A stretch of DNA of 64,000 bases from Clostridia bacterium (GTDB lineage: Bacteria > Bacillota > Clostridia > JAAYHZ01): assembly GCA_050950825.1 (NCBI GenBank), contig JBMNIH010000010.1:128001-192000 (forward strand). Direction: 5' to 3'. Shown here in pieces: positions 1-48,329 of the stretch. Below the pieces are notes generated by a model. The model saw only the letters and a list, made by a program, of their open reading frames with translations, was not told where the DNA came from and searched no databases. The stretch's first letter is position 1, and every line of letters starts with the position of its first letter. The translations under genes were made by a program, and so were the position numbers.

Positions 1-2821
<2,821 letters not shown>

Positions 2822-3079
2822 TTTCCTTTGGTCCATCATTTCATATAGGTTGATTGTCCCAAGCTCGTCGCTTTTCCTGATTATTTTTTTAGCATTGTTT
2901 CAGCATTGTTTTTTTGTCGTTTTCGATAAAATTGCAGACTCAGTGAGTCACTCGTTACCGTTTTTTATTTCGGCTTCTCGTTTTAACTCTCTTTGTCTTC
3001 CTTTTTGTCGCGGTTCCATTCTTCATGGAACCTTTTGACGCATTATGCAGTTTTCAAGGTGCGATCGCTTGCGCGCTTT

Positions 3080-3155
3080 TGGTGGAGATAAAGAGATTCG
3101 AACTCTTGACCCCCTGCTTGCAAGGCAGGTGCTCTCCCAACTGAGCTATACCCCC
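3080..3155 (-). tRNA. tRNA-Ala(TGC) in the 16S-23S spacer
   Basis: GGGGGTATAGCTCAGTTGGGAGAGCACCTGCCTTGCAAGCAGG...TCTCCACCA; 76 nt, G3:U70 pair, encoded CCA. Confidence 0.97.
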
Positions 3156-3242
3156 GTAAAAAGAACCTCGATGAATTTACAGTGTATTGAACCGTCAATC
3201 GACCTTATACGATTACGGCGAAATTTCTTCCGTCGTCAATCT

Positions 3243-4789
<1,547 letters not shown>

Positions 4790-4978
4790 AATCTTCAAAC
4801 CCTTTTTCGGGTCTCTTGTTTGTCCTGTCTTTTTTTAGACTTTTTGTCCCGTGCGATTTATTTCGCACTTTGGATTTACTTTTAAATGTTAAACTCTCGC
4901 TTTTTCAAGCTTAAGTTTGACGGGTTCAATACACTGTTCATTTTTCAAGGTTCTGTGCCGTCTCGCGACGGCTTGCTT

Positions 4979-5008
4979 ATGATAACACAGCGATTCATTT
5001 CCTGTCAA
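4979..5008 (-). promoter_or_regulatory. sigma-A promoter of the rRNA operon
   Basis: TTGACA-N18-TATCAT with TG extension; a boxA-like CCTTGAAAAATGAAC follows, and the leader (about 4917-4937) is complementary to the post-16S spacer (about 3179-3198), forming a processing stem. Confidence 0.8.
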
Positions 5009-5097
5009 GGGTGATAAAAATGATTTTTTTAGCCGTTTTTGCCGATTATATGAATTTATACGAAGATAATTTATGAATTTAACTGTCTAGCTGTTGA

Positions 5098-5126
5098 ATA
5101 AAAGAAATACCGGCGGTGCCGGTATT
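5098..5126 (-). terminator. intrinsic terminator after gyrA
   Basis: AATACCGGC/GCCGGTATT inverted repeat followed by TCTTTT on the minus strand. Confidence 0.65.
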
Positions 5127-5157
5127 CATTTTATCTGTTTTTTCTTTTTAATTTTCA

Positions 5158-7767
5158 TCAAATATCGTATTCGTCTTCTTCGTCGCTTTCATCCCAAGGA
5201 TCGCGATAGTCATCGTCCTCGTCTTCCGATTCGAAATCGTCCTCCCTGTACTTCGAGCGACAAATTCCGCTTTTCGCTCTTTTGTCCGCTTCGTTCAATT
5301 CGTCTTCTTCCTCCGCCTCGGGAATGATTCTTGCCAGGCTTACCACTTGGTTATCCTCCGTCGTCTTCATTAAGGTTACGCCCATGGTAATTCTGCCTAA
5401 CAAACTGATTTCCTTGACCGGAACACGAATCACGGTACCGTCTTTCGTGATCATGATGGCGTCGTCTTCTTCGTCCACCATCTTCATTCCCACGACTTTT
5501 CCGGTTTTTTCGGTAATCTTATACGTTCTTACCCCTTTTCCTCCCCGCTTAATGGTTGTATATTCTTTCGGGTCGGTTCTTTTACCGAATCCGTTTTCCG
5601 TAACAAGAAGCAGCGTACTGTTTTCCCAAACCACACCCATTCCGATTACTTCGTCGTCATCGTCCAGCGTGATTCCCTTTACGCCTTGGGCGGTTCTGCC
5701 CGTCGGCCGGACATCGTTTTCGCTAAAGCGTATGGCCATGCCGTTTTTGGTAACCAGTATAATATCGTCGTTACCGTCGGTAAGACGTACACTGATAAGC
5801 TCATCGTCTTCTCTTAGGGTGATGGCTGCAAGACCGCTTGTACGAATGCTGTCGTACTCGGAAAAGGCCGTTTTCTTAACAAGACCCTTTTTGGTGACAA
5901 ACATCAAGTACTTTCCGTCGCTATAGTCCCGAACGGGTATCGTGGTCTCTATCCGTTCGTCACTGTTCAATTCCAGCAAATTGACGATTGCGGTTCCTTT
6001 TGCTTGTCTTCCGGCCTCCGGTATAACGTATGCCTTTAAGCGGAACATGCGGCCTTTATTGGTAAAGAAGAGAATATAATCGTGGGTTGAGGTGGTAAAC
6101 AAATTAACCACATAATCCTCTTCTCGGGTGGACAGGCCGACAACCCCTTTTCCGCCCCTTCTTTGGCTCTTATACGTATCGCAAGGCAATCGTTTAATAT
6201 ACCCGAAATTCGTAATGGTGATTACGTTTTCTTCTTCTTCGATCAAGTCTTCGATATTAATGTCGTTATCTTCGGCTATTTCGATGCGAGTTCTTCTTTC
6301 ATCGCCGTACTTTTTCTTCATTTCAAGCAATTCTTCTTTAATGATTCCGTGAACCATATGAATATCGGCTAAAACCCTTCTGTAATAATCGATTTTTTCC
6401 TCCAATTCCGCATACTCTTTTTGCAGCTTTTCTCTTTCCAAACCGGTCAGTTGTCCTAACCTCATATCCACGATATGCTGGGCTTGGATTTCGGTAAACC
6501 CGAAATTTTCGATCAAACGGGTTTTCGCCACGGCCGTCGTAGACGAAGAACGAATGGTAGCAATGATCTCATCGATAATATCCAACGCGCGAAGCAAGCC
6601 TTCTAAAATGTGGGCTCTCGCTTCCGCCTTTTCCAAATCAAAACGCGTTCTTCTTTGAACGACATCCACCTGGTGATCCACGTAATGAGAAATGGCTTCC
6701 TTTAAGTTGAAAATAATAGGTACAAACCTGCCTTTTTCGTCCTGAGCCAATGCAAGCATGTTTACACTGAATACATCTTGCATTTGTGTGTATTTGTACA
6801 ATTGGTTCAAAACGATATTCGGGCTGGCATCTTTTTTTAACGTAATGGAAATGCGGATTTCTTCCTTGCGATCCGATTCGTCGGTGATATCGGCAATACC
6901 GTCAATTCTTTTTTCCTTGACCAGCTCGGCGATTTTAACGATTAATCTTGCTTTATTTACCAGATACGGTAAGTCCTTTACAATAATTTTATGTCTGTTG
7001 CCGACCTCCACGATCTCCGTATTTGCTCGGACGATGATTCGGCCTTTTCCTGTTCTGTACGCTTCTCTGATTCCTCGAAGGCCTACAATGGTTCCGTAAG
7101 TAGGAAAGTCCGGCCCTTTGATATATTGCATCAATTCGTCTACGGTAATATCGGGATTATCGATAAAAGCACAAATACCGTCAATAACTTCCCCTATATT
7201 ATGAGGGGGAATGTTCGTAGCCATACCTACCGCAATGCCCGAGGATCCGTTGATCAACAAATTCGGAACGCGAGAAGGCAGAACCACGGGTTCAAAATCG
7301 TGTTCATCAAAGTTCGGTTGAAAATCAACCGTATCTTTATTAATATCCGCCAGCATTTCCATGGCGATTTTATGCATTTTGGCTTCGGTGTAACGCATAG
7401 CGGCGGGAGGATCCCCGTCTCTGGAACCGAAGTTACCGTGTCCGTCTACCAAAGGATACCTTAAAGAAAAATCTTGGGCCATTCGAACCAAGCTGTCGTA
7501 TGCAGCCGCATCTCCATGAGGGTGAAAGCTTCCTAAAACGTCCCCTACCGTGGTGGCACATTTTCTGTAAGGCTTGTCCGGAGTAAGACCGGATCGATAC
7601 ATAGAGTACAGGATTCTTCGATGAACCGGTTTTAATCCGTCGCGAATATCAGGCAAAGCCCTGTCGACAATAACGCTCATGGCGTAATCGATGAAGGACT
7701 TCTTCATTTCTTCTTCTATATCTACCGGTATGATATGCTGATTTTTATTGATATCTTCGGTTGTCAT
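5158..7767 (-). CDS. gyrA: DNA gyrase subunit A
   Basis: [28 protein letters not shown] catalytic Tyr, GyrA-box QRRGGKG, acidic tail. Confidence 0.97.
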
Positions 7768-23108: not shown

Positions 23109-25136
23109 CTTAACTTTAACAGTTACGGAATATAAAAAACCTTTGTAATCCTTGAGAAATGCGGCTTACGAAGGTTCTTTTGATTTCAGAAGATTGTTGT
23201 ACATTTTTCTTAGTTATCTTTTAGTGTCGGCAATAAGTTGACGTATTGCTCCGGGTTTAAGAAAACGTCGATTAAGTACAAGATTCAAGGCATTACCGAT
23301 ATCCTTTAGAAGGGGATCATAATAAGCTACTCGGTATACGTTATCCTTAACTAAACAAGCCTGATATTTTCTCAAAGACTTAATTATCTGTTCGGGAGCG
23401 TACTCCTTAATCAAACGCTTTGCCAAGAGTCTTAAAATCAGCAATGCAATGAAGCACGTAAGAAAATGTCCTTCTATCCTTTGTTTCAATGTAACATAAA
23501 CGGGACGGGTTTCAAGATCGCTTTTGGTAATTCGAAAACTATGTTCAATTTCCCAAAGCTCATGATATCTCTTGGCGACTTCGTGATCCGGCATATTGAT
23601 TTCGCTTGTAATAATTACATAATAACCGTCGTACTTTTCGTCTTCCATGATTTTTTCCGTATCCAAATAAGGAATACGTTTCGTATTGATGCATTCGCCG
23701 GTTTCGGAATCGTATTCGATATTTTTAATATAACGCAATGCGCTTTGAGCATCTTGTTTTGTATAGCGTTTGGGATTCGCTATGATTTTTTGGGCCTTTT
23801 CAATCAGTTCGGCCCGCTTATGCTTCCGGTGTCCGGCATATAGTTCGTTGTAACATACAATCTGTTTAACATCTATTGGAATCGGGCGTTTCTTGCCGTC
23901 CGCATGGGTAACCCGAAATTCCTGCGGATACGGTCTGGATTTTAAGCGGAAAACGGGTTCTCGTTTTTCCGTTTTTTCATCCCACAGATCCGCCGACTTT
24001 ACCACTCCTTTTTTCTCCACATAACCCGAAGGGTCAAATACAAAAGACTGTAGTTCCTTATTGGCTCCTCGTATTTTTTGCGAGAAGATGAAACCGTCTT
24101 TTTCAGCCGTTAAAAATGCCACGTTATCACCGCAATTTAACGCTTTATCCGCAACAACGATAATTCTTCCCAATCCGTATTCTTCCCGTACCTTCTCAAT
24201 AATTGGCATCATTGTTTGACTGTCATGGGTATTTCCTTCGAAGAGACGATATGTAATGGGAATCGCATCCGAATCCAGCAATAAACCCATTTGTACCAAA
24301 GGGTTACCGGTATTATCTTTGCAATAACCTTTCTTACGAAACTTGTCTTCTTCGTCAATCTCAAAATAGTAATTGGTAACGTCATAAAAAGTTATGTCGG
24401 TCTTGCGATTGTAATGGATTCTTACCTGCTCATGGAGATGAAGAAGAAGGTCTTCTCGAAAATCGGAAAAGTAATCCAATGCCCGATATACGTCATACCA
24501 ATCGCAATTGAAAGGTCTTGCTATTCTTTCTTTCTCTTGAAAACTCGCTATTTTTGATCCCGGTGCGAGTATGCGTGTGTAGACCAAAAGTTGCATGACA
24601 TCGTTTAGGGAATAGTCCATAGATTTAGTGCGCTGACGGTTAATCAAGAATTGATCAATTTTGAGTTCATGATAAATTCGGCTTAAAGGCAGAAATCCCA
24701 AATGGTACATGGCATCTTCGTTCTCATCCATTACTTCATTTGTACTTACATACCCTAAATAGACATCTTCTTCGGCTTCTTGCTTTTTCTTCTCCAAAGT
24801 ACGTAAACGTGCTACTTCTTTAAAGTGAGCAATCGGATCTTCAAAACGATCCAAATATTCGTCAACGTAACCTAAATTTTCGATTACATTATGCTTTACA
24901 TTCTTTGTTTTCGGATCTCTATAACCTTCGACAAAACTCAAATTCATACGACCGATTTTTTGCGGAGTAACTTTCAGGTACATGACCGTCCTCCAAAACT
25001 CTATATCATTAACAAATTGGATCATAATACGCAGCAATAGTCAGCAATTTTGATTTGACATAAAAAAAGCGATCTAACAGCGTCATATCAATGGTTTTCA
25101 TAATCTTTTTAGGACTAGTTAACTGTTAAACTCGCG
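23109..25136 (-). mobile_element. IS1634-family insertion sequence
   Basis: Imperfect terminal IRs CTTAACTTTAACAGTTA (23109) and CGCGAGTTTAACAGTTA (reverse complement ending 25136) enclosing a DDE transposase. Confidence 0.85.
23214..24983 (-). CDS. IS1634-family DDE transposase
   Basis: FYDVTNYYFE, VQMGLL, FEGNTHD, VVADKAL, WEIEHSFRITKSDLETRPVY; start after GGAGG. Confidence 0.92.
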   Translation of the reverse strand: MYLKVTPQKIGRMNLSFVEGYRDPKTKNVKHNVIENLGYVDEYLDRFEDPIAHFKEVARLRTLEKKKQEAEEDVYLGYVSTNEVMDENEDAMYHLGFLPLSRIYHELKIDQFLINRQRTKSMDYSLNDVMQLLVYTRILAPGSKIASFQEKERIARPFNCDWYDVYRALDYFSDFREDLLLHLHEQVRIHYNRKTDITFYDVTNYYFEIDEEDKFRKKGYCKDNTGNPLVQMGLLLDSDAIPITYRLFEGNTHDSQTMMPIIEKVREEYGLGRIIVVADKALNCGDNVAFLTAEKDGFIFSQKIRGANKELQSFVFDPSGYVEKKGVVKSADLWDEKTEKREPVFRLKSRPYPQEFRVTHADGKKRPIPIDVKQIVCYNELYAGHRKHKRAELIEKAQKIIANPKRYTKQDAQSALRYIKNIEYDSETGECINTKRIPYLDTEKIMEDEKYDGYYVIITSEINMPDHEVAKRYHELWEIEHSFRITKSDLETRPVYVTLKQRIEGHFLTCFIALLILRLLAKRLIKEYAPEQIIKSLRKYQACLVKDNVYRVAYYDPLLKDIGNALNLVLNRRFLKPGAIRQLIADTKR

Positions 25137-25337: not shown

Positions 25338-25406
25338 AAGTATTAAGTGAGTTCAGTTAAGTGTGGTTATTCTAACCCGGTTTCTAAAGTACGTACGGAG
25401 GGCAAA

Positions 25407-26177
25407 ATGTCGAAAATTATTGCTATCGCAAATCAAAAAGGTGGGGTAGGTAAAACAACTACCGCTGTAAATCTTAGTGCATGCTTGGCAATGCACAAAA
25501 AGAAAGTGTTGTTGCTGGACAATGACCCTCAAGGAAATTCCACATCGGGTTTCGGTATCAACAAAGATCAATTAAAGCATTCCGTTTACGATGTTTTAAT
25601 AAATGAAGTACCTATCGACGATTGCATTGTTGATTCCATGATTGAAACCTTAAAAGTATGTCCTTCCAATATTCAACTGGCCGGTGCAGAAGTAGAGTTG
25701 GTATCTCTCATATCCCGTGAAACAAGATTGAAAATGGCTTTGGATGAAATGAATTCCGAATTCGATTATGTCATTATCGATTGTCCGCCTTCTTTGGGGA
25801 TGCTGACGTTAAATGCACTGACGGCAGCCGATACGGTTCTTGTGCCGATCCAATGCGAATATTACGCTTTGGAAGGCTTAAGCCAATTGGTCGAAACCAT
25901 TCGAATCGTACGGAAACACTTGAATAAGAACCTGGAGGTTGAAGGTGTTGTTTTGACCATGTTCGATGCAAGAACGAACCTATCCATTCAAGTAGTGGAA
26001 GACGTGAAGAAATATTTTAAGAACAAGGTGTATCGTACAATCATACCGAGAAACGTGAAGTTAAGCGAAGCACCGAGCCACGGTTTGCCTATTATACTTT
26101 ACGAACCGAATTCAAAGGGTGCGGAAAGCTATATGGAGTTAGCGGAAGAAGTGATAGAAGCGGAGGAAGATAAATGA
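25407..26177 (+). CDS. soj: ParA-family ATPase Soj
   Basis: NQKGGVGKTTT, DPQGN, IDCPPSLG, QCEYYALEG, IPRNVKLSEAPSHG; start after GGAGG. Confidence 0.96.
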   Translation: MSKIIAIANQKGGVGKTTTAVNLSACLAMHKKKVLLLDNDPQGNSTSGFGINKDQLKHSVYDVLINEVPIDDCIVDSMIETLKVCPSNIQLAGAEVELVSLISRETRLKMALDEMNSEFDYVIIDCPPSLGMLTLNALTAADTVLVPIQCEYYALEGLSQLVETIRIVRKHLNKNLEVEGVVLTMFDARTNLSIQVVEDVKKYFKNKVYRTIIPRNVKLSEAPSHGLPIILYEPNSKGAESYMELAEEVIEAEEDK

Positions 26178-27022
26178 GTAAAAAAGCTTTAGGAAAAGGA
26201 TTAAATGCATTGTTCAGCGAGGATCCTGTTGATCAAGAAAACGATATAAAGGAAGTGGATATCTATCACATTCAGCCGGATAAAAATCAACCTCGAAAGA
26301 ACTTTGATACGGAGACATTAAACGAGCTTGCCCAATCCATCAAAAGAAGCGGTGTTCTTCAGCCCATTTTAGTGCGAGAAGAAAAACCCAATACATATAC
26401 CATTATTGCAGGGGAGAGAAGATGGCGAGCAGCCAAGTTAGCCGGATTAAAAACCATTCCCGTTATCGTTAAAAATCTAACGGATATAGAAATGATCGAA
26501 GTGTCTCTGATAGAAAATTTGCAAAGGGAAGATCTGAATCCCATAGAAGAGGCGAAAGCTTATGAACGGCTGCAAAAAGAATTTAACAAAACACAAGAAG
26601 AAATAAGCGAAATTGTCGGTAAAAGCCGTACGGCCGTTACAAATTCATTGAGGCTGCTGCAGTTGGACAATGAAATTATAAATTTAATTGAAGACAGCCG
26701 CATTAGTCCGGGACATGCCAGAGCCATTTTATCTTTGGAGGATGCTTCAAAGAGAAAAGAATTGGCGAAGATCATTATAGACCAAAATTTGAACGTAAGA
26801 CAAGCGGAAGAACTGGCAAAGAAAATGAACCAAGTTACCGTGACGACCAAATCCGGATCCAAAACGAGATTGCCGGAGGTCATTGAAATTGAAAATAAAT
26901 TGCAAAGACAAATAGGAACAAAGGTAAAACTGAACTACAATAAAGGGAAGGGCAAAATCATTATTGATTTTTACAGCAACGAGGATTTGGACAGAATTTT
27001 AGAGCTGCTGCAGGTGGAATAG
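26174..27022 (+). CDS. spo0J: ParB-family partition protein Spo0J
   Basis: LGKGLNAL, QPRK, GERRWRA, ENLQREDLNPIEEA, KSRTAVTNSLRLL, GHAR. Confidence 0.96.
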   Translation: MSKKALGKGLNALFSEDPVDQENDIKEVDIYHIQPDKNQPRKNFDTETLNELAQSIKRSGVLQPILVREEKPNTYTIIAGERRWRAAKLAGLKTIPVIVKNLTDIEMIEVSLIENLQREDLNPIEEAKAYERLQKEFNKTQEEISEIVGKSRTAVTNSLRLLQLDNEIINLIEDSRISPGHARAILSLEDASKRKELAKIIIDQNLNVRQAEELAKKMNQVTVTTKSGSKTRLPEVIEIENKLQRQIGTKVKLNYNKGKGKIIIDFYSNEDLDRILELLQVE

Positions 27023-27040
27023 ATAGCTTTAGTAAAAAAT

Positions 27041-27085
27041 AAGAAGGAGATAGATTCTTTACGGATCCATCTCCTTTATTTTTAT
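27041..27085. terminator. bidirectional terminator between spo0J and the glycosyltransferase
   Basis: AAGGAGAT...ATCTCCTT stem flanked by A and T runs between convergent genes. Confidence 0.6.
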
Positions 27086-27110
27086 CTTCAATTATTCATT
27101 TATTTATTGT

Positions 27111-28286
27111 TTAAGAGCCGTAAGAGTAAGTTCGGCTAAAGCGGTTAATTAGATAGCGATACCGTTCCTTCGCCATATTCGCCGAGTCTTCCCAGCTGCG
27201 GTATAAAGTCTTCGTTGCATTTTCGCCGACGGTTCTTGCCAATTCGGGGTTCTCAATGATTTTTATAATCACTTCGCACATGGATTCCGGTGTATTTTCT
27301 ACCAAAAATCCGTTCTGCATGTCCTTTACACCTAAAGATGTGGTGGACCCTTTTACCAATACGGCGGGGCATCCCATAGCTGCGGCTTCTTTAACTACGA
27401 GGGAAGACATGTCATACAAGCTGGGGAACAGCAAAGCGGTACCTCGGGCGTAAATGTTACCGATTAAATCGCGGTCCTGAATGATTCCGGCAAAGGTAAC
27501 CTTATCCGTTAATTGGTATTCCTCCGTAATTTGCTCCGCTTCCTGCCTTTTATCGCCGTCTCCGACGAATAACATTCTAAAATCGTAATTCTTTTCATGA
27601 ACAAGTTTTAAACCGTCCAAAATAAGCTTAATATTTTTTTGCCATATATGTTGTCCTACGTAAACAAAAACGGGTACGTCTTCGGGAAAACCGAACCGTT
27701 TATTTATCTCATCCAGTATTTCTTTTGTTTTCGGCTTGGGTACGATATCGCAAGCATTATTAACAACAAATACGCTTTTCTTGTAGCCGTATTCTCTTAA
27801 AATCTCAACGGCGGATTCGCTGACGGTCCATACGTCATCCGCTTGGTTAAAAAAGTACAATACTCTTTTGATTAATAAATCGGTAATAATATCGGACTTT
27901 AAATACTGTTTAAAATCATCTTTAAACTTCGAATGAAGGGTAGCTACAAAAGGAATTCCTTGATCATATGCAATCTTCCTTCCTAATTCCCCCGCAGGGA
28001 AGGGAGAATGGGAATGGATGATATCAAACTTCACTTTTTTCAATTCGTTGTAAAACTGCCGGTCAAATTGCGGTATTCCGGTTCGGTAATTCTTTTTGAA
28101 GGGTATACTGAAAGAATGGTAGGTTAACACGGGAAAAGGATATTCGTAAGAATAGCCCGGAACACCGGGAGTTATAACGTAACAAGTGTCACCGTCCTTG
28201 TGCTGCCATAACGCATAATTTTGTACTACTCGTGCTACGCCATCCGCAATAGGCGGAAAGCTGTCGGTAAACTGACCTATTATCAT
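27111..28286 (-). CDS. GT4-family glycosyltransferase, glycolipid-synthase-like
   Basis: MIIGQFTDSFPP..DGVA, HSHSPF, FPSLYDMSSLVVKEAAA; resembles the diacylglycerol glucosyltransferase-like GT4 subgroup. Confidence 0.85.
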   Translation of the reverse strand: MIIGQFTDSFPPIADGVARVVQNYALWQHKDGDTCYVITPGVPGYSYEYPFPVLTYHSFSIPFKKNYRTGIPQFDRQFYNELKKVKFDIIHSHSPFPAGELGRKIAYDQGIPFVATLHSKFKDDFKQYLKSDIITDLLIKRVLYFFNQADDVWTVSESAVEILREYGYKKSVFVVNNACDIVPKPKTKEILDEINKRFGFPEDVPVFVYVGQHIWQKNIKLILDGLKLVHEKNYDFRMLFVGDGDKRQEAEQITEEYQLTDKVTFAGIIQDRDLIGNIYARGTALLFPSLYDMSSLVVKEAAAMGCPAVLVKGSTTSLGVKDMQNGFLVENTPESMCEVIIKIIENPELARTVGENATKTLYRSWEDSANMAKERYRYLINRFSRTYSYGS

Positions 28287-28358
28287 AAAATCATATCCTT
28301 TCTTCGTTTTAATGCTGGAATACGTTTACTGCTGCCAAAAATTAACGATGTCGTTATA

Positions 28359-29531
28359 CTATTTCCCGTACCATACTTTTTTATACACACTTAAAACGAA
28401 ATCCAATTGCTCTTTTGTATGTGTAGCCGAATAGCTGGTGCGCAGCAAACATTGTCCCTGAGGCACGGCAGGCGATACTACCGGGTTCACATACACACCT
28501 TCTTCAAGTAAGACTTTAGTCATTACAAAAGTACGTTCATCTTCGTAGGTCATGACCGGGATGATAGCCGTTGTGGAATTGCCGATAGGTATGTTCAATT
28601 CACGGAAACCGGCTCTCATATAGTCGGCGATATCTTTTAATTTCTGTACTCTTTCAGGTTCTTCCTTTAATATTTCCAAAGCTTCGTAGGCTACCGCGGC
28701 ACTGGCGGGAGTAACGGAAGCGCTGAATATGAAAGGGCGAGACTTGTGCTTAACGTATTCGACGACCTTTTTATCGGCAGCCATATGTCCGCCCAAGCAA
28801 GCCAAGGATTTGCTGAATGTTCCCATGATGATATCCACCTCGGCCTCCAGCCCGAAATATTCGGCGGTACCTCTGCCTTTTGCGCCTATCATTCCCAGTC
28901 CGTGGGCATCATCCACCATAACTCTTGCGTTATATTTTCTTGCCAAATCGATAATATCAGGTAATTTACAGATATCACCACCCATACTGAATACGCCGTC
29001 GGTTACGATGAGTTTTCCTGCGTCCAAAGGAATGTTTTTTAAAATTCGTTCCAGATCCGCCATATCGCTGTGCTTGTATTTGATAGTTTTAGCAAAACTC
29101 AGCCTGCATGCATCCACGATACTGGCATGGTTTTCGCTATCGGATAATATGTAGTCGTGGCGATCCGTCAACGCGGTAATGATTCCTAGGTTCGCTTGAA
29201 AGCCCGTACCGAATGTAACGGCGGCTTCTTTGTTTAAAAATTCGGCAATATTTTTTTCCAATTTAATATGCAAATCCAAAGTTCCGTTCAAAAAACGAGA
29301 TCCGGTACAACCCGTTCCGTATTGCTCAATGGCTTTTTTTGCAGCTTCTATTAAACGCGGATGAGAAGTTAAACCTAAGTAATTATTGGAGCCTGTCATA
29401 ATGGTTCTTTTTCCATTAATAATAACCTCGGTGTCCTGTTTGGATTCCAAAGCATGAAAATACGGATAAATCCCTTTTTCCTTTGCTTCATCGGCTGCGG
29501 TGAATTCCATGCATTTTTTAAATATATCCAT
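28359..29531 (-). CDS. PLP-dependent alpha-oxoamine synthase, serine palmitoyltransferase-like
   Basis: GIYPYF, GSNNYLGLT, GTGCTGSRFLNGTLDLH, NHASI, DDAH, IMGTFSKSLA (PLP Lys), GVYVNPVV; motifs match Bacteroidota-type SPT better than BioF or Kbl (recognition from memory, not an alignment). Confidence 0.85.
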   Translation of the reverse strand: MDIFKKCMEFTAADEAKEKGIYPYFHALESKQDTEVIINGKRTIMTGSNNYLGLTSHPRLIEAAKKAIEQYGTGCTGSRFLNGTLDLHIKLEKNIAEFLNKEAAVTFGTGFQANLGIITALTDRHDYILSDSENHASIVDACRLSFAKTIKYKHSDMADLERILKNIPLDAGKLIVTDGVFSMGGDICKLPDIIDLARKYNARVMVDDAHGLGMIGAKGRGTAEYFGLEAEVDIIMGTFSKSLACLGGHMAADKKVVEYVKHKSRPFIFSASVTPASAAVAYEALEILKEEPERVQKLKDIADYMRAGFRELNIPIGNSTTAIIPVMTYEDERTFVMTKVLLEEGVYVNPVVSPAVPQGQCLLRTSYSATHTKEQLDFVLSVYKKVWYGK

Positions 29532-29541
29532 GTTGCACTCC

Positions 29542-30384
29542 TTAATCCTTTAAATTTTTAGCGACTTTACCGGTATATTTTTTCATTAAAACTTTTAATT
29601 TCAAACCGGTAGGTAAAATTCTGTTTAATATGTATATGAGCTTGTATTCGATACCTACGTTGGTTCGCATAGGCGGTTTTTTCTTTCGTATGATTTTCTC
29701 AACGACGAAAGCGACTTCTTCCGGAGGATATCCGTTTTGCTCGTCTTCTTCCATTACGGATACGGCATGGGTGCTTGCAGGTTCATAAAGAGCTTCAATT
29801 TCTTCTTTTCCGGCCTTTAAACGAGATTTTGTGAAGTTCGTTCGTGTGTCACCGGGCTCAACCAAGCATACATGAATATTGAAGGGGGCAAGCTCCATTC
29901 GTAAAGCTTCGGATAAAGATTCCAATGCGTATTTGGAGGCACTGTACATAGACTGAAAGGGTATGGAAATATAGCCTGCCACGGACCCGATATTGATAAT
30001 GGTACCTCTGCCTTGAGCCCTCATAAAGGGAAGTACTTTTTGGATGACTCTGACAACACCGAAAAAGTTGACTTCGAATTGTTTTTGAGCGATATCGACG
30101 GGAACCGATTCTACGGAGCCGGAGATGCCGAATCCGGCACAGTTGACAAGTACATGAATTTGCTTTTCTTTTTCGATAAGTTTTTCTACTGCAGATGCCA
30201 CCGATTGTTCATCTGTAACATCCATTTGCAGCATATGTACTCGGCTATCCGAAAAATAGTCCGCAGCTTTTCTGGAAGTTCCGTAAACAATATTCCTCGG
30301 ATCCTTTGCCAGGGTCTTCGCTATAGCTTGTCCTATTCCGGATGAAGCACCGGTAACCAATATTACGATATTTTCCGTTTCCAT
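29542..30384 (-). CDS. short-chain dehydrogenase/reductase, candidate 3-ketosphinganine reductase
   Basis: TGASSGIG, basic GTSRK (NADPH-type), NCAG, YSASK; first gene of the operon with the SPT-like gene. Confidence 0.85.
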   Translation of the reverse strand: METENIVILVTGASSGIGQAIAKTLAKDPRNIVYGTSRKAADYFSDSRVHMLQMDVTDEQSVASAVEKLIEKEKQIHVLVNCAGFGISGSVESVPVDIAQKQFEVNFFGVVRVIQKVLPFMRAQGRGTIINIGSVAGYISIPFQSMYSASKYALESLSEALRMELAPFNIHVCLVEPGDTRTNFTKSRLKAGKEEIEALYEPASTHAVSVMEEDEQNGYPPEEVAFVVEKIIRKKKPPMRTNVGIEYKLIYILNRILPTGLKLKVLMKKYTGKVAKNLKD

Positions 30385-30430
30385 AGTCGACAGCTCTCTC
30401 TTTATTATTTATATATAATGTATTAACCGT

Positions 30431-30459
30431 ATTATACTCCCGAAAAAATGTTAATTCAA
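30431..30459 (-). promoter_or_regulatory. sigma-A promoter of the SDR-SPT-GT operon
   Basis: TTGAAT-N17-TATAAT on the minus strand. Confidence 0.7.
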
Positions 30460-30611
30460 CTTGTTCGAGTTTTTTATTACTAGCTGATAATACTATATTA
30501 TAATATTTTCGAAGAAGATACAATGGGTTTGTTTTATTTTATGTAAATAATTAGTGTAGTTATAAATATCATTGAAAAATAACCCGGGAAATCTCATATC
30601 GGGCGGAACAC

Positions 30612-32162
30612 TTTTTGCTCGGATTTGAACCGCACCAGAAGGTAACGCTAGGCGCAGCTGCGAGAGCCTTGGAAGAAAGTATAGACAGCAGTTACCGCAA
30701 AGGCGGAGAGAATGCAAGCATAAAAGCGGAAGAAGGCATTAGCAAACAAGCCGTGATGGATCTGGTACATGAGATTGAGGCGGACATGCCGATGCCGGAA
30801 CCGGAAGGAAAGAAGAAGATAAAAAGGCTTCATGTCATAGCCGATGAAGATCATGTGGCGGCACAGTTTTGGAATGAAAAGGGCGATTTGAAGCGAGATG
30901 CGAGGGGCCATAAGATTAATACCCTGATGCCTAAGCTTGTTTGTGTATTCGAGGATATTATCAATGAATCGGGGGAAGCATCCAAGAATCCCAGATATAA
31001 GCTGATCGGAAAAAAATACTTTTGCGGTATTTACGAGGGTGGCAAAGGCAACGAAAAGCTTTGGATGGAGGTTGCCGAATACATAGAAAAAACATACGAT
31101 ACGGACTATCTTGAGAGAATATACGTAGTCGGAGACGGAGCTTCGTGGATAAAAAAAGGATGCGAATATTTGGAGAACAGCAAATATGTCCTTGATAAAT
31201 ACCATATGATGAAATATATAAACAGGTCAGTGGCGCATCTTTACGATAGCGCGGACGAGGTGAAAGACTGGATTTGGGGAGCCTTGAATCGTTTGGACAA
31301 AAAGGAATTGAAGAATATCTATGAGCAGATCCTGAAGGTTACGGAAAGTGAAAACAAGAAGCAAGAAGTGGAAGATGCGTTAAGATATTTTCTAAATCAT
31401 TGGCAAGGGATAAAAACCCGAGTGGAAGAAACAAGCGGCTGGACATATTGCATAGAAGGGCAAATAAGCCATGTATTGTCGGCAAGAATGAGCAGCAGAC
31501 CAATGGGATGGAGCGAATTGGGTTGCGACCGCATGGCAAGGCTCAGAGCGTACAAAAGAAACGGCGGTAAGATTCTTGACTTGCTAAAATATCAAAAACA
31601 ACGAAAAAAGCAAAAGGAAAGGCGTGAAGCACAAGAAGAATTGATAAGAGATCTGAGAAGAAGACATTCAAAATGGACGTATGCGGAAGATACCAGACGT
31701 CACATACATGGTTTGGAAAGGAGCAGTATGAAGTGGCTAAAGAATATGACCACACTGGCTTGGGACGCATAAGCAGCTTGAACCGCTATGACTTTGTAAC
31801 CGTGTGACGGTAGGCTTTATGCCGCGAAAGTCGCTTTACGATGAGTAGACGGCATGTTAGGCTTGTCTGCCTGGCATCAAACACACAAAGCCGTATCCGG
31901 CTTCACCCTGTAGGAAGATGCCGCAGAGGCCACTAAACATGCCGGCAGAGGCTCGTCGTAAAGCGAACCGTGGAATAAATGAGTACTTTACTTGTGCATT
32001 TGCTATTGTCTTCATGAATTCTTAAATAGGTGATGTGTAATAATCAATTAAAAAAACAAATGTGGAAAAATTGATGGAAATGATATATGATACAGACAAG
32101 ATTTAATCTTATCATAAGGGTGAACTCTCTCTTTTTATTTCCGAATGTATATTGACGCTATC
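30612..32162 (+). mobile_element. 5'-truncated ISLre2-family element
   Basis: Transposase begins mid-protein with no SD; right end TTCCGAATGTATATTGACGCTATC resembles ISLre2-type IRs; no matching left IR seen. Confidence 0.7.
30615..31772 (+). pseudogene. ISLre2-family (UPF0236) transposase, N-terminally truncated
   Basis: IADEDHV, GDGASWI, LDKYH, IEGQISHVLSARMSSRPMGWS. Confidence 0.82.
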
Positions 32163-32424: not shown

Positions 32425-34116
32425 ATGGACTACAGAAAAATAGTTTCCGAAATGATCAGTAAAGCATCCGATTTAGAGATTGATAAAATAGAAAACATGA
32501 TAGAAGTTCCTGCAAATTCGGAGTTGGGCGATTACGCTTTGCCTTGTTTTAAGCTGGCATCGATCTATCGAAAGGCACCCGTATTGATTGCCCAAGAGCT
32601 TGCGGGAAAGATATTACCCGACAGCCACATCAGCAATATACAAGCGGTAAACGGATATCTGAACTTTTTTGTCAATAAAGAATCCTTTTCGGCATCCGTG
32701 TTGAATGAAATACTGGAAAAGAAGGACCGGTATGGCGACGACACGGTCGGAGGAGAGCAAACCGTTATTATTGAAAGCTCCTCTCCGAATATTGCGAAAC
32801 CCTTCCATATCGGTCATTTGTGCTCCACCATCATCGGCCAATCCCTTTATCGGCTGTATGAAAGTGCAGGATACAAAGTGGTAAGAATCAATCACTTAGG
32901 AGACTGGGGTACTCAATTCGGGAAGCTGATTTCGGCATACAAACGCTGGGGAGACGACCAAGCGATTCAGGAAGAACCCATAAAGGAATTGCTGCGTATC
33001 TATGTGAAGTTTCACGAGGAAGCGGAAAAAAACCCCGAACTGGAGGAAGAGGCTCGGAGATATTTTAAGAATCTGGAGGACGGATCTCCGGAGGAAACAA
33101 GGCTTTGGCAGTGGTTTAAGGATCTTAGCTTGAAAGAATTCAACAAACTGTACAATCGTCTGGGCGTCAGCTTTGATTCCTACAACGGCGAAAGCTTCTA
33201 TTCCGATAAAATGGACGAGGTCGTATCTTTATTGGAGGAAAAATCTTTGTTGAAGGAAAGCGACCAAGCGAAGATTGTGGATTTGGAACCGTATAATATG
33301 CCTCCTTGCATTATTGTAAAATCCGACGGTGCTTCCATTTATGCAACCCGGGATATTGCGGCGGCCATCTACAGAAAAAGAACCTATGATTTTTATAAAA
33401 ACATTTATGTGGTCGGTATACCCCAAGCGCTTCATTTCCAACAGTTTTTCAAGGTATTGGAGCTGATGGGATGCGAATGGAGCAAGGACTGCGTTCATGT
33501 CGGCTTTGCTCATGTTCGGTTTCCGGATAAAAAGCTTTCCACCCGTTCGGGAAACGTCATTTACTTGGAAGATGTTTTGGACGAATCGGTGAACCGTATC
33601 AAGGAATACATGACCAATACCAAGCTTGATGAAGATATGATTGAGCCTACCGCCGAAAAAATCGGAATCGGTGCGGTTATCTTTGCTTTTTTGAAAAGAT
33701 CGAGAGAAAAAGAGATGGTCTTTTCTTGGGAAGAAACATTAAACTTAGAAGGCGAATCCGGTCCTTACATTCACTACACTTACGCCAGAGGATTAAATAT
33801 CCTGCGTAAAGTGGAAGGCTTGGAAGACCGGCCGGACTTTTCTTTGCTGAAAGAAAAGGTGGAAATCGCAATTATTCAAAAACTGTCCGTATTACAAGAA
33901 ACGATTGCAGAAGCCATTAGTCGTAACGAACCGATGGTTATTGCACGGTATGTGATCGAGCTGTCCAAGCTGTTTAACTCGTTCTATAACTCTTGTAAAG
34001 TTATCACCGAGGAAATAAAATTAAAGACGGCACGGGCGAAATTAATTGAAGCATGCTGCATTGTCATTAAAAAATGCTTGTATTTATTGGGAATTGAAAC
34101 GGTAGATGCAATGTAA
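32425..34116 (+). CDS. argS: arginine--tRNA ligase
   Basis: SSPNIAKPFHIGH, NHLGDWGTQFG, YNGES, KLSTRSG, GPYIHYTYAR, C-terminal M. Confidence 0.97.
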   Translation: MDYRKIVSEMISKASDLEIDKIENMIEVPANSELGDYALPCFKLASIYRKAPVLIAQELAGKILPDSHISNIQAVNGYLNFFVNKESFSASVLNEILEKKDRYGDDTVGGEQTVIIESSSPNIAKPFHIGHLCSTIIGQSLYRLYESAGYKVVRINHLGDWGTQFGKLISAYKRWGDDQAIQEEPIKELLRIYVKFHEEAEKNPELEEEARRYFKNLEDGSPEETRLWQWFKDLSLKEFNKLYNRLGVSFDSYNGESFYSDKMDEVVSLLEEKSLLKESDQAKIVDLEPYNMPPCIIVKSDGASIYATRDIAAAIYRKRTYDFYKNIYVVGIPQALHFQQFFKVLELMGCEWSKDCVHVGFAHVRFPDKKLSTRSGNVIYLEDVLDESVNRIKEYMTNTKLDEDMIEPTAEKIGIGAVIFAFLKRSREKEMVFSWEETLNLEGESGPYIHYTYARGLNILRKVEGLEDRPDFSLLKEKVEIAIIQKLSVLQETIAEAISRNEPMVIARYVIELSKLFNSFYNSCKVITEEIKLKTARAKLIEACCIVIKKCLYLLGIETVDAM

Positions 34117-34138
34117 ATACTATGCGGAGGGTGATAAA

Positions 34139-34954
34139 ATGGATAAGAAGTTTACGGTATTGGTTATCGGAGCACATCCCGATGATTGCGAGATTAAAGT
34201 AGGCGGGTTAGGAATCAAATGTGTCGAAAAAGGATACAGGGTAATATTCATGTCCGCTACCAACGGGGAAACCGGCCATCAAACGCTGAGTAATGAAGAG
34301 ACGGCTCGGATCCGTAAAGGAGAGTTTGAAAGATCCTGTAATATGGCCGGTATCGAATGTTTTGTGACCGACATTCCCAGCAATAAAATCTTACCGGATA
34401 TCATAACCAGGGAAATGTTCGTGCGAATTATTCGAGGTTATCAGCCGGATATTATCATTACCCACAGATTAAACGACTACCATCCCGATCATCGGATTAC
34501 GGCACAGCTGGTGCAGGATACTTCTTACGCCATCAAAGTGCCGAAGGTATGCCCGGATGTACCGCCGCTGCGTTATACTCCCGCTATCCTGTATATGTCC
34601 GATAGTTTCAAAAGACCTTACGAATTTTCTCCTCATATTGCCTTGGATATCGACGCCGTTTTGGACAAGAAGATGAGGATGTTGGCCTGCCACGAGTCCC
34701 AAGTTTACGATTGGCTGCCGTGGGTGGACGGAGTATCGGACCAAGTACCGGAGGATAAAGAAGAAAGATACTTGTGGATGAAAGAAGACCGTTCTTCTAG
34801 GGATAAAAAATGCGCCGATCGGTTCAGAGAGCTTTTGTGCAAACGATACGGAGAAGAAAAAGGCAAGAGTATCGTTTATGCGGAAGCCTACGAGGTCAGC
34901 GAATACGGAAGACAGTTATCTTTTGATGAGTTGGATGAGATATTCCCGAAATAA
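34139..34954 (+). CDS. PIG-L/LmbE-family deacetylase
   Basis: GAHPDD, HPDH, CHESQ metal-binding motifs. Confidence 0.9.
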   Translation: MDKKFTVLVIGAHPDDCEIKVGGLGIKCVEKGYRVIFMSATNGETGHQTLSNEETARIRKGEFERSCNMAGIECFVTDIPSNKILPDIITREMFVRIIRGYQPDIIITHRLNDYHPDHRITAQLVQDTSYAIKVPKVCPDVPPLRYTPAILYMSDSFKRPYEFSPHIALDIDAVLDKKMRMLACHESQVYDWLPWVDGVSDQVPEDKEERYLWMKEDRSSRDKKCADRFRELLCKRYGEEKGKSIVYAEAYEVSEYGRQLSFDELDEIFPK

Positions 34955-34969
34955 AGGAATGGAGATATA

Positions 34970-35008
34970 AAAGGGCGAGAATTGAATTTCCCGCCCTTTC
35001 GTTTTATT
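34970..35008. terminator. bidirectional terminator
   Basis: AAAGGGCG...CGCCCTTT stem between convergent genes. Confidence 0.65.
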
Positions 35009-36197
35009 TATTTGCGTAGTTATCGAAATAACGTTGAATGTATATGATAGGGGTACCTTTATCGCCGCTTCCTGACGTAAGATCCGCCAAGCTTCCAATA
35101 AGGTCGGTTAACCTTCTGGGGGTGGTCCCTTGCGATACGGCATTGCCCACCAAATCCGGTTCTTTTTTTCGAATATATTCGGTGACGGCTTTCGTCAATT
35201 CTTCTCCGCTTAAATCTTTGAAGTAGTTGTCCGCCAAATATTTTAATTTCACTTCGTTCGGTTTTCCTTCAAGTCCCGGAGTATATGCAGGTGAGACCAC
35301 AGGGTCCGCCAGCTCCCATATCTTTCCGACGGGATCTTGGAAAGCGCCGTCTCCGTATACCATAACTTCTACGGTTTTCCCGGTTCTTTTACGGATTTCT
35401 TCTTGGATGGCCATAACAATGACGTTGCAGCCTCGCGGAAACAATTTTACGCTGTCTTCCGATGCTTTGTTGGATCCTAAAAGTCCGTATTGTTCGTTGT
35501 ACCCGCTGTTGTCAACGGATTGTGAAAGTATATCGTCCAATCCGTAAAGAATATCGCAACCGGCATTGTTGATTAATCTTTTTGTTCGGGTTCTTGTATG
35601 GATGTCGCATACCAATACGTTTTTGGTGTACCGGAGGATCGTCACGGGGTTATTGGAAAATATGATTTCGCATTCCGCCCCGGCGTTTACCACCAATTCT
35701 TTATAGTATGTGACATAATCAACGCCTGTAAAGTAATGCTTTGTATAACCGAAATACTTGCGGAATTGCTCTTCCGTTAAAGTATCCGAATACGGATTTA
35801 TATTATATTGATCCAAAGAATCCGGATCAATCAAATGGTTTCCCACTTCGTCTTTAGGATAACTCAGCAAAAGGATTACTTTTTTAACGCCCTTTGCAAT
35901 CCCTTTTAAACATATGGCAAATCGATTTCTGCTTAGAATCGGAAACACGACACCCAATTCCGTATATCCGAATTTTTGTCTTATATCTTTGGCTATTTGA
36001 TCCGTGGTAGCATAGTTTCCTTGAGCGCGAGCGACCACCGATTCGGTTACGGCAACAATATCTTTATTCTCGATATCATAGCCTTCCGATTTGGCTGCAT
36101 TAACGACTACATCCGATACAATACGGACCACGTCGTCTCCTTTTTTAAATATCGGTGCTCGAAGCCCTCTTACTATTGTTCCTACCGCTCTTTCCAT
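35004..36197 (-). CDS. coenzyme F420-0:L-glutamate ligase-family protein
   Basis: RGLRAPI..GDD, TESVVARAQGN, YGDGAF.DP, GTTPRRLTDLIGSL.DLTSGSGDKGTP. Confidence 0.8.
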   Translation of the reverse strand: MERAVGTIVRGLRAPIFKKGDDVVRIVSDVVVNAAKSEGYDIENKDIVAVTESVVARAQGNYATTDQIAKDIRQKFGYTELGVVFPILSRNRFAICLKGIAKGVKKVILLLSYPKDEVGNHLIDPDSLDQYNINPYSDTLTEEQFRKYFGYTKHYFTGVDYVTYYKELVVNAGAECEIIFSNNPVTILRYTKNVLVCDIHTRTRTKRLINNAGCDILYGLDDILSQSVDNSGYNEQYGLLGSNKASEDSVKLFPRGCNVIVMAIQEEIRKRTGKTVEVMVYGDGAFQDPVGKIWELADPVVSPAYTPGLEGKPNEVKLKYLADNYFKDLSGEELTKAVTEYIRKKEPDLVGNAVSQGTTPRRLTDLIGSLADLTSGSGDKGTPIIYIQRYFDNYANK

Positions 36198-47783: not shown

Positions 47784-48329
47784 ATGAAAAACAGACAAGA
47801 CATATACCGAATGGTATTAACGGCCGTAGCGGCCGCCGTACTATGTGTTTTGGGCCCTTTGTCCATACCCATCGGCATTGTACCCATTTCCTTTACGAAT
47901 TTTGCCCTTTTCATTTCCCTGTACGCTTTGGGTATGAAAAACGGTACATACGGCTATATTATCTATTTACTCATCGGCCTTACGGGGGTACCGGTGTTTT
48001 CGAATTTCAGCGGAGGCATAGGAAAATTGCTCGGCCCTACGGGAGGCTACTTAATAGGAATGATCTTTACCGCCGTTATTGCAGGGCTTTTCATCGATCG
48101 TTTTTTGAATAAGAAAATCCTATGTTTTTTGGGAATGGTTATCGGAGCCTTGGTATGCTATCTATTCGGTTCCGCTTGGCTTTCCTATCAAGGACATATG
48201 TCCATCGCCCAATCTCTATCCGTTGGCGTTATTCCCTTTATTCCCGGCGATTTGGCTAAAATTCTAATTGTCGCCCTGATCGGACCGAAGATTCGAAAAC
48301 GGCTGACGGAATCACGGGTCGACTCGTAA
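47784..48329 (+). CDS. bioY: biotin transporter BioY
   Basis: IPIGIVPI, G.PVFS, GPTGGYL, PFIPGD..K; BirA site upstream. Confidence 0.95.
   Translation: MKNRQDIYRMVLTAVAAAVLCVLGPLSIPIGIVPISFTNFALFISLYALGMKNGTYGYIIYLLIGLTGVPVFSNFSGGIGKLLGPTGGYLIGMIFTAVIAGLFIDRFLNKKILCFLGMVIGALVCYLFGSAWLSYQGHMSIAQSLSVGVIPFIPGDLAKILIVALIGPKIRKRLTESRVDS

Follow-up and report, generated by a model that had tools for sequence, protein, structure and literature searches.

A stretch of 64,000 nucleotides from a Clostridia bacterium (contig JBMNIH010000010.1, positions 128,001 to 192,000; the whole stretch is called the window below) carries three adjacent genes for a short-chain dehydrogenase/reductase (SDR), a pyridoxal 5'-phosphate (PLP) enzyme and a family 4 glycosyltransferase (GT4). 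On balance, the SDR and the PLP enzyme are best read as a candidate long-chain-base module that is transcribed with a putative lipid glycosyltransferase, and that would represent a distinct and widespread Firmicute variant of a known pathway. This reading is supported by where the proteins fall among known families, by the residues of the pocket, by the linkage and co-occurrence of the genes and by their presence in RNA libraries. The PLP enzyme groups with the serine palmitoyltransferases (SPTs) and is a candidate SPT, and the public annotation, which is mostly 'BioF', is probably wrong. The three genes are as follows.

30384 to 29542, minus strand: classical SDR, candidate 3-keto-long-chain-base (3-ketosphinganine) reductase, 280 amino acids (aa), adh_short domain, KdsR as best model
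29531 to 28359, minus strand: SPT-type alpha-oxoamine synthase (the PLP enzyme), candidate serine palmitoyltransferase, 390 aa, NF047600 as best model
28286 to 27111, minus strand: GT4 retaining glycosyltransferase, candidate lipid (sphingoid or diacylglycerol) glycosyltransferase, 391 aa, Glyco_transf_4 and Glycos_transf_1 domains

The listing of open reading frames (ORFs) for the window confirms three minus-strand genes running in one direction, from the SDR through the PLP enzyme to the GT4, with 10 nt between the first two and 72 nt between the second and third. The initial annotation had recognised the PLP enzyme as an SPT of the Bacteroidota type from the motifs GIYPYF, GTGCTGSRFLNGTLDLH, NHASI, MGTFSKSLA and GVYVNPVV, and all five are present in the 390-aa translation. 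The enzyme contains a full-length Aminotran_1_2 domain (PF00155, 209 bits in Pfam), and its Lys241, His135, Asp207 and His210 align to Lys244, His138, Asp210 and His213 of the S. multivorum SPT. A PLP fold type I domain together with the Schiff-base lysine, the stacking histidine and the Asp/His contacts makes it a member of the alpha-oxoamine synthases (AOS).

Within this family, model scores point to SPT rather than to BioF or Kbl. Among NCBIfam models, the Bacteroidota SPT model NF047600 ranks first with 565 bits, about 140 bits above the Kbl, BioF and TIGR01825 models, and each of these is matched below its own cut-off: NF005394 at 420 bits (cut-off 460), TIGR01822 at 343 (493) and TIGR01825 at 426 (535) on the Kbl side, and TIGR00858 for BioF at 395 (426). 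Similarly, among solved structures the S. multivorum SPT (PDB 3a2b/8guh) scores 448 bits, gap-free over residues 5-386, followed by a Thermus KBL/BioF at 297 bits, E. coli Kbl at 263 bits and cysteate acyltransferases at 238 and 214 bits. Three loci from the 405-414-bit group of SPT-model matches served as controls. One, a BioF locus in a Clostridial bioD-bioF-bioC-bioA operon, passes the BioF cut-off at 475 bits, and two Clostridial Kbl proteins (L073, L074) pass TIGR01825 at 617-632 bits and Kbl at 541-548 bits. Both kbl genes adjoin genes for extended SDRs of the Epimerase family (318-325 aa), which are presumably threonine dehydrogenases of the GalE-like type. Genuine BioF and Kbl from Clostridia thus pass their own models, and they differ from the window gene in their scores, their neighbours and their place in the tree.

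Tree position was assessed with FastTree on 98 rows labelled by NCBIfam scores. Besides the window protein, they comprised proteins from 26 of 41 loci of Firmicutes or Mycoplasmatota, 16 proteins from Bacteroidota, Kbl and BioF from E. coli, the Clostridial control proteins and a paralogue from the window's genome. They also held 46 of the 150 nearest representatives at 50% identity (79 multidomain or over-long, nine partial and, for set size, 16 unlabelled ones being left out). Ten clusters of these representatives were looked up by name, and the single named one is from a Phycisphaerae metagenome-assembled genome. The Firmicute SPT-like clade is monophyletic (support 96), and a larger clade (support 98) unites it with Bacteroidota proteins that pass the SPT cut-off, leaving Kbl and BioF outside. 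This larger clade includes Mucilaginibacter proteins named serine palmitoyltransferase by NCBI and a sequence that passes the beta-proteobacterial SPT model. A quick IQ-TREE run under a site-mixture model, on 53 of the FastTree rows and without bootstraps, agrees (supports 98 and 97) and places E. coli and Clostridial Kbl, as well as BioF, outside the SPT-containing clade with a support of 99.

The substrate pocket tells a similar story. Of the 26 pocket residues named in the available text of the S. multivorum SPT structure paper (PMC10196870; numbering offset by +3, as in 8guh), 22 are identical in the window protein. These include the catalytic residues His138, Asp210, His213 and Lys244, the residues for the serine carboxylate and hydroxyl (Asn52, Gly80, Ser81 and Ser243), and Tyr27, Phe83, Leu84, Asn85 and Ala274; Tyr27 and Phe83 form part of the acyl-binding wall in the same available account (PMC10196870). 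All 27 Firmicute rows keep Asn52, Gly80, Ser81, His138 and Ser243. The four differing positions are Ile15, Val16 and Leu19, which are all Ala in the window protein, and Met271, which is Ile there and in six of 11 rows that pass the SPT model. At several pocket positions, the residue shared by 23-27 of the 27 Firmicute rows is replaced in the seven Kbl and five BioF rows, where Ser81 gives way to Val (7/7 Kbl rows), positions 27 and 83 are non-aromatic and Ala274 becomes Thr or Asn. The assignment to the Bacteroidota type of SPT, against BioF and Kbl, is therefore upheld by NCBIfam and PDB scores, by two trees and by 22 of 26 pocket residues. As had been observed before, no bio or tdh gene adjoins the operon according to ORFs, Pfam and NCBIfam. 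Furthermore, a search of the genome assembly (97% complete) gave no match for bioB and no true tdh (best match 162 bits), so BioF- or Kbl-type roles for the PLP enzyme look unneeded.

The SDR matches adh_short in Pfam with 163.5 bits, and its translation contains TGASSGIG and YSASK, which are the TGxxxGxG and YxxxK motifs of classical SDRs. Its best NCBIfam model, first among 229 matching families, is KdsR (NF049977) with 279.8 bits, the next family scoring 249, and it is also the top KdsR-like gene of the genome (next 160.7 bits). For the SDR partners at three distant loci KdsR likewise ranks first, with 211-308 bits, and across the window SDR and these partners its lead over the second model is 30-59 bits. 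Together with the genomic coupling to the SPT-like gene across Firmicutes, this is in keeping with the earlier proposal that the SDR is a candidate 3-ketosphinganine reductase. It resembles BT_0972 of B. thetaiotaomicron (NF049977; available text of PMC9278070) as a classical SDR with the Gly-rich NADPH motif, YxxxK and the same best model, but scores 280 bits where the cut-off is 400 and is operon-linked to SPT, and in two Clostridia genomes a medium-chain dehydrogenase/reductase (MDR) appears to stand in its place.

A second AOS cluster lies elsewhere in the same genome, on one strand of contig C1 (about 64.8-68.8 kb; L046:6784-10780). It consists of a HAD-IIA hydrolase, a 422-aa AOS, a 354-aa tandem glyoxalase/VOC protein and a 269-aa SDR, the last being the genome's second-best KdsR-like gene. 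The 422-aa AOS falls into no clear family (bioF 312, Kbl 309 and SPT 295 bits).

Gene linkage was examined in two sets of loci. The first comprised 14 loci from named genome records, 12 from Firmicutes or Mycoplasmatota (Clostridiaceae, Oscillospiraceae, Acholeplasmataceae, Mariniplasma, Mollicutes) and two from Bacteroidota. Of the 12, 11 have an SDR gene next to the SPT-like gene, whether upstream, downstream or divergent, and the remaining locus has just 355 nt upstream; metagenome-assembled genomes (MAGs) of Acholeplasmataceae are among those that carry the pair. No SDR was found within 5 kb of SPT in the two Bacteroidota loci. The second set held 29 class-sample loci with 1.5-kb flanks, two of them on the same contigs as L003 and L004 of the first, and 18 have an SDR within 1.5 kb of the SPT-like gene. 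Among the 11 loci without an adjoining SDR, five belong to family code f11, two to f6, and four have unrelated neighbours or short contigs. In three f11 genomes that were searched, a KdsR-like SDR is encoded elsewhere (186-198 bits). At the f6 loci (L017:120-1331, L018:1788-3005) the neighbour of the SPT-like gene encodes a zinc-type MDR dehydrogenase of 403-405 aa. A search of the two f6 genomes at E <= 1e-40 gave no KdsR-like SDR, and the MDR may be a non-orthologous replacement of the reductase. The recurrent unit is thus an AOS gene with a dehydrogenase partner, which fits a keto-reduction step.

Scored with the SPT model, 399 Clostridia genomes gave 51 matches at 511-597 bits, two at 457-467 and ten at 405-414. 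Because 51 of the 399 sampled genomes, or about one in eight, hold it, the SPT-like gene is a widespread lineage trait in Clostridia. For example, it is found in 13 of 14 genomes of f22. Carriers in culture include Caldicoprobacter species. It is also kept in three f45 genomes (G082, G140, G349) of about 1.0-1.1 Mb that are 99-100% complete, two of which hold two GT4 homologues each.

Two further sites bear on transcription of the three genes.

30459 to 30431, minus strand: promoter-like site TTGAAT-17-TATAAT, 10/12 consensus matches
27034 to 27076, minus strand: terminator-like hairpin with U-run, 3' of the GT4 stop and between the convergent GT4 and parB genes, -19.2 kcal/mol, z -4.45

The window stretch was found in bioreactor, sludge and digester metagenomes, and six biogas-fermenter metatranscriptome runs contain 87-94% of the words sampled from it. 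In two of four metatranscriptome runs, from different studies, single contigs (27077-30474 and 27081-30459) span exactly the SDR, SPT and GT4 genes; RNA libraries may hold DNA, and contigs cannot establish one transcript. In the metatranscriptomes, parAB (25389-27026) and the insertion sequence from 30616 lie on contigs apart from that of the operon, and contig breaks at both intergenic borders would be the pattern expected of an operon transcript. The contigs of the operon and of parAB end on opposite sides of the terminator-like hairpin, which none of 200 shuffles matched in folding, and no terminator-like site was found in the 72-nt gap between SPT and GT4. A single sigma-A promoter had been proposed for the operon. 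The site itself exists, but such sites are no denser in the region than chance (nine found, 8.8 expected from shuffles). Because RNA contigs extend to 30459-30475, which is 35-50 nt upstream of the start expected from this site, the actual transcript start may lie further upstream, possibly served by another TATAAT box that can be read at about 30502-30497.

Membership of the third protein in GT4 is clear from its Glyco_transf_4 N-domain (89.8 bits) and Glycos_transf_1 C-domain (95.3 bits) in Pfam. Its best NCBIfam model is the alpha-monoglucosyldiacylglycerol (alpha-MGlcDAG) synthase NF049988, aligned over 1-382 of 391 residues with 103 bits against a cut-off of 400, and its protein-atlas matches are generic glycosyltransferase clusters plus one automatically named MGlcDAG synthase cluster. 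It shares the GT-B GT4 retaining fold and a length of about 390 aa with this synthase and with AgcT (BF9343_3149), the alpha-galactosylceramide synthase of B. fragilis. The available parts of two papers place AgcT and MGlcDAG synthases in one GT4 subgroup (10.1101/2023.05.23.541633; PMC9692976), and it is through this published subgroup, rather than by direct sequence comparison, that the window GT4 is likened to AgcT. The earlier placement in a glycolipid-synthase group therefore stands as a loose membership, while the score falls far short of the synthase cut-off.

At E <= 1e-40, 46 of the 399 Clostridia genomes contain a homologue of the GT4; 32 of them are SPT-positive, whereas in the whole sample the figure is 51 of 399. 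In a tree built from 46 GT4 rows, the clade of the window GT4 (support 91) draws 26 of its 30 rows from SPT-positive genomes, and two of its four SPT-negative exceptions come from genomes that are 72% and 77% complete. All ten rows of its sister clade are from SPT-negative genomes. These co-occurrence counts are inflated by genome kinship; the SPT-positive rows nonetheless span several family codes.

From these placements a pathway of three steps may be proposed. In the first, the PLP enzyme would condense a long-chain acyl-CoA or acyl-ACP (acyl carrier protein) with an amino acid, of which L-serine is the likeliest candidate, to give a 3-keto long-chain base. In the second, the NADPH-type classical SDR would reduce this base to a sphinganine-like amino alcohol, as the SPT and KDSR of Bacteroides do. 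In the third, which is less sure, the GT4 from the same transcript could attach a sugar in alpha linkage, either to the base itself or to an N-acylated form of it.

A number of observations weigh against this pathway. The PLP enzyme, at 565 bits, does not reach the curated cut-off of NF047600 (640 bits), nor does any of the 399 Clostridia genomes, and the SDR, at 279.8 bits, does not reach the curated KdsR cut-off of 400 bits. In both trees the Firmicute sequences branch as a sister lineage, with several uncharacterised clades around them, and are not nested within Bacteroidota or characterised SPTs. At the five f11 loci (L025, L026, L028, L034, L036), the neighbouring genes encode an EamA transporter and a diaminopimelate dehydrogenase, an amino-acid-like context, and at L017 and L018, which have the top SPT-model scores among the Clostridia loci, the best model of the MDR is tdh, an echo of Kbl-Tdh. 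No published SPT or sphingolipid synthesis was found for Clostridia or Bacillota, for which the supplementary tables of relevant papers may list Firmicutes, and no ceramide synthase was recognised in the genome. The possible DNA content of the RNA libraries belongs here too. Lastly, the GT4 is the genome's only MGlcDAG-synthase-like gene, it lies beside SPT in no family but the window's (L003, L004; 2 of 14 loci), and the SPT-like gene is absent from 14 of the 46 GT4-positive genomes.

The three points on the GT4 also speak for a division of labour in which the SDR and SPT make a long-chain base while the GT4 is an ordinary diacylglycerol glycolipid synthase, producing alpha-monoglycosyl-diacylglycerol for membrane or lipoteichoic-acid anchors, and shares the operon for membrane-lipid co-regulation. 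We regard this as possible, if the less probable outcome. That the GT4 could act on diacylglycerol instead of a sphingoid lipid is suggested by the end-to-end alignment to its best model and by the available text of 10.1101/2023.05.23.541633, in which AgcT-like GT4 enzymes of ceramide-less species make glucosyl-diacylglycerol. Moreover, one GT4 homologue lies directly upstream of fabH-fabK-fabF, and because of this neighbourhood and the GT4's being the only such gene in the genome, the diacylglycerol acceptor stays a strong rival. Set against it are the low score on the MGlcDAG model, the contrast between the largely SPT-positive subclade of the window GT4, which spans several families and owes two of its exceptions to incomplete genomes, and its wholly SPT-negative sister clade, and the joining of the GT4 to SDR and SPT on RNA contigs.

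A narrower alternative concerns the amino acid. The PLP enzyme might use alanine, glycine, cysteate or another non-serine substrate and so yield a 1-deoxy or sulfonolipid-type base in place of sphinganine, which we consider unlikely. The distance of the Firmicute clade from all characterised SPTs and its score below the SPT cut-off leave room for such a shift, and the available portions of the literature describe low-efficiency use of Ala and Gly by the S. multivorum SPT itself, cysteate acyltransferases as a branch of the same superfamily, and 1-deoxysphingolipids from anaerobic bacteria. On the other hand, the residues for the serine carboxylate and hydroxyl (Asn52, Gly80, Ser81, His138, Ser243) are invariant in the Firmicute rows, the solved cysteate acyltransferases match far more weakly than SPT (238 and 214 against 448 bits), and the cysteate acyltransferase pocket is described as remodelled in the available part of its source.

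It is very unlikely that the pair is instead a divergent Kbl with a threonine or amino-alcohol dehydrogenase, working on small molecules such as threonine, glycine, acetyl-CoA or aminoacetone. The unit of AOS and dehydrogenase genes would, taken alone, fit the Kbl-Tdh analogy as well, and this rival is therefore kept at low weight. The second-best models of the PLP enzyme are TIGR01825 (426 bits) and Kbl (420 bits), the tdh-like MDR and the amino-acid-like f11 neighbourhoods point the same way, and public sources often name the family 8-amino-7-oxononanoate synthase. Kbl-Tdh and BioF also share with the window system the PLP fold, the catalytic Lys, His and Asp, and an AOS gene beside a dehydrogenase gene. 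However, the window protein falls outside their clades (support 99 for Kbl) and below their cut-offs, its pocket is SPT-like, with neither the Kbl-typical Val at Ser81 nor non-aromatic residues at Tyr27 and Phe83, and its locus differs, in a genome lacking bioB and true tdh. True Clostridial Kbl proteins pass the Kbl models and have extended SDRs of 318-325 aa as neighbours, unlike the classical 280-aa SDR here, for which KdsR is the best model, and the MDR reaches only 152-160 bits on tdh against a cut-off of 458. Least probable of all is that the module makes no bulk membrane lipid but a diffusible signal or secondary metabolite, an amino ketone or amino alcohol resembling CAI-1 or a vitroprocine, which neighbouring transporters would export. 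Recurrent transporter neighbours (EamA at five loci, major facilitator superfamily genes near the pair at the Oscillospiraceae-type loci L008, L012 and L014) and the shifting genomic contexts of the SDR-SPT module are outweighed by weak matches to CqsA (221 bits on the CqsA-type NCBIfam model, 116 bits on the PDB CqsA), by vertical conservation in whole families such as f22 and in genomes of about 1 Mb, which suits a core membrane function better, and by transcription with a lipid-type GT4 in the window.

The SDR-SPT pair, read as a long-chain-base module, raises the matter of N-acylation. No ceramide synthase lies in the window, as remarked on in the initial annotation, and none was recognised in the genome by a search with Pfam PF13480 and PF13444, as opposed to the bCerS sequence. 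PF13480 is presumably the family linked to bCerS; its matches in the genome lie in a sugar-transferase/GT4 polysaccharide cluster, and PF13444 had no match there. A TMEM164-related acyltransferase was considered as the N-acyltransferase and dropped as a general partner because the window's genome has none. One such integral-membrane protein is encoded in an Oscillospiraceae MAG (L008:4086-4895; TIGR02206, 100 bits), divergent from the SDR-SPT pair, and is a candidate N-acyltransferase there. A bolder and rather doubtful proposal is that monoderm anaerobes, namely about one in eight sampled Clostridia species and the Acholeplasmataceae, make sphingoid lipids by SPT and KDSR without a known ceramide synthase, with the GT4 of the window's lineage glycosylating the free base to a psychosine-like glycosyl-sphinganine or with an unknown N-acyltransferase family completing a Gram-positive glycosphingolipid pathway.

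Compared with known systems, the PLP enzyme is like the S. multivorum SPT (3A2B, 8GUH) and NF047600 in being a soluble single-domain AOS of about 390-400 aa, with SPT its best match in both libraries. Apart from the missed 640-bit cut-off, it differs from Bacteroidota SPTs in that the Firmicute and Mycoplasmatota clade stands beside and not within the Bacteroidota clade, that the host is a monoderm anaerobe, and that a reductase gene usually adjoins, as it did not in the two Bacteroidota loci. The Spt-bCerS-CerR pathway of Caulobacter, as described in the available text of PMC11087976, likewise combines an SPT-family first enzyme with a reductase. In the window, by contrast, the reductase is of the KdsR and not the CerR kind, no bCerS is recognised in the genome, and no gene for ACP or an acyl-ACP synthetase adjoins the operon. 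In Bacteroides, a reductase of the KdsR kind acts on the free base.

Beyond the operon, the window also contains the following.

30616 to 32162, plus strand: truncated insertion sequence (IS) of the ISLre2 family, left end lost, situated between the operon and argS, not part of the operon, NF033529 221 bits, ORF 30615 to 31772
47874 to 48299, within the window: bioY transporter gene

The IS remnant had been taken as a hint of horizontal gain. A truncated ISLre2 copy does lie beside the operon, but relatives at 82-86% identity share the synteny with neither IS found here, and the clade is monophyletic and spans multiple families, so the hint is not supported. In L004, whose SPT is 82% identical, the order is argS, SDR-SPT-GT4, parB-parA and gyrB, with no ISLre2 remnant and no IS1634 copy. 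Since L004 has the same synteny and lacks both, the IS elements are later insertions into a conserved origin-proximal region; conserved IS-free synteny and a monophyletic clade over many Clostridia families disfavour recent acquisition. In four of four RNA runs, other ISLre2 copies diverge from the window before 30616 and after 32162. In all four runs these copies, apparently expressed, are longer by about 357 bases ahead of 30616 and by two G residues after 32028. The full-length IS1634-family transposase (23214-25037, 364 bits) is inserted between gyrB and parA.

The PIG-L deacetylase encoded after argS was weighed as a possible GT4 partner and rejected, as it is not beside argS in L004. The gene for this PIG-L/BshB-like protein (34106-34954; 97 bits on the BshB1 model, whose cut-off is 182) overlaps the end of argS by 11 nt, and a protein of the F420-0:gamma-glutamyl-ligase family (35004-36197) follows on the opposite strand. 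Positions 1-6000 of the window have a G+C content of 0.50-0.58, compared with about 0.40 across the rest. One Spo0A-like match was found in the genome (184 bits, cut-off 200).

Sphingolipids in bacteria are ascribed to Bacteroidota, some Proteobacteria and a few other groups, and the reviews and papers found name no producer among Clostridia. The holders given in a 2023 review are Bacteroidota, Proteobacteria, Fusobacterium and 'Mycoplasma spp.', the last for a sphingophospholipid (citing Olsen and Jantzen 2001), and the available text of PMC11334938 reports Spt-like proteins in 38 phyla. The placement with SPT would correct the widespread annotation of this family as 8-amino-7-oxononanoate synthase. 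If the pathway holds, many digester and gut Clostridia and Acholeplasmataceae would make sphingoid lipids, and sphingolipid signals of anoxic sites and gut lipidomes would need a different attribution. Similarly, the old mollicute report of a sphingophospholipid, the organism of which is said to be Acholeplasma axanthum, would gain a genetic basis. The operon would also offer a simple system in which to study sphingolipids in cells without an outer membrane and to seek the missing N-acyltransferase.

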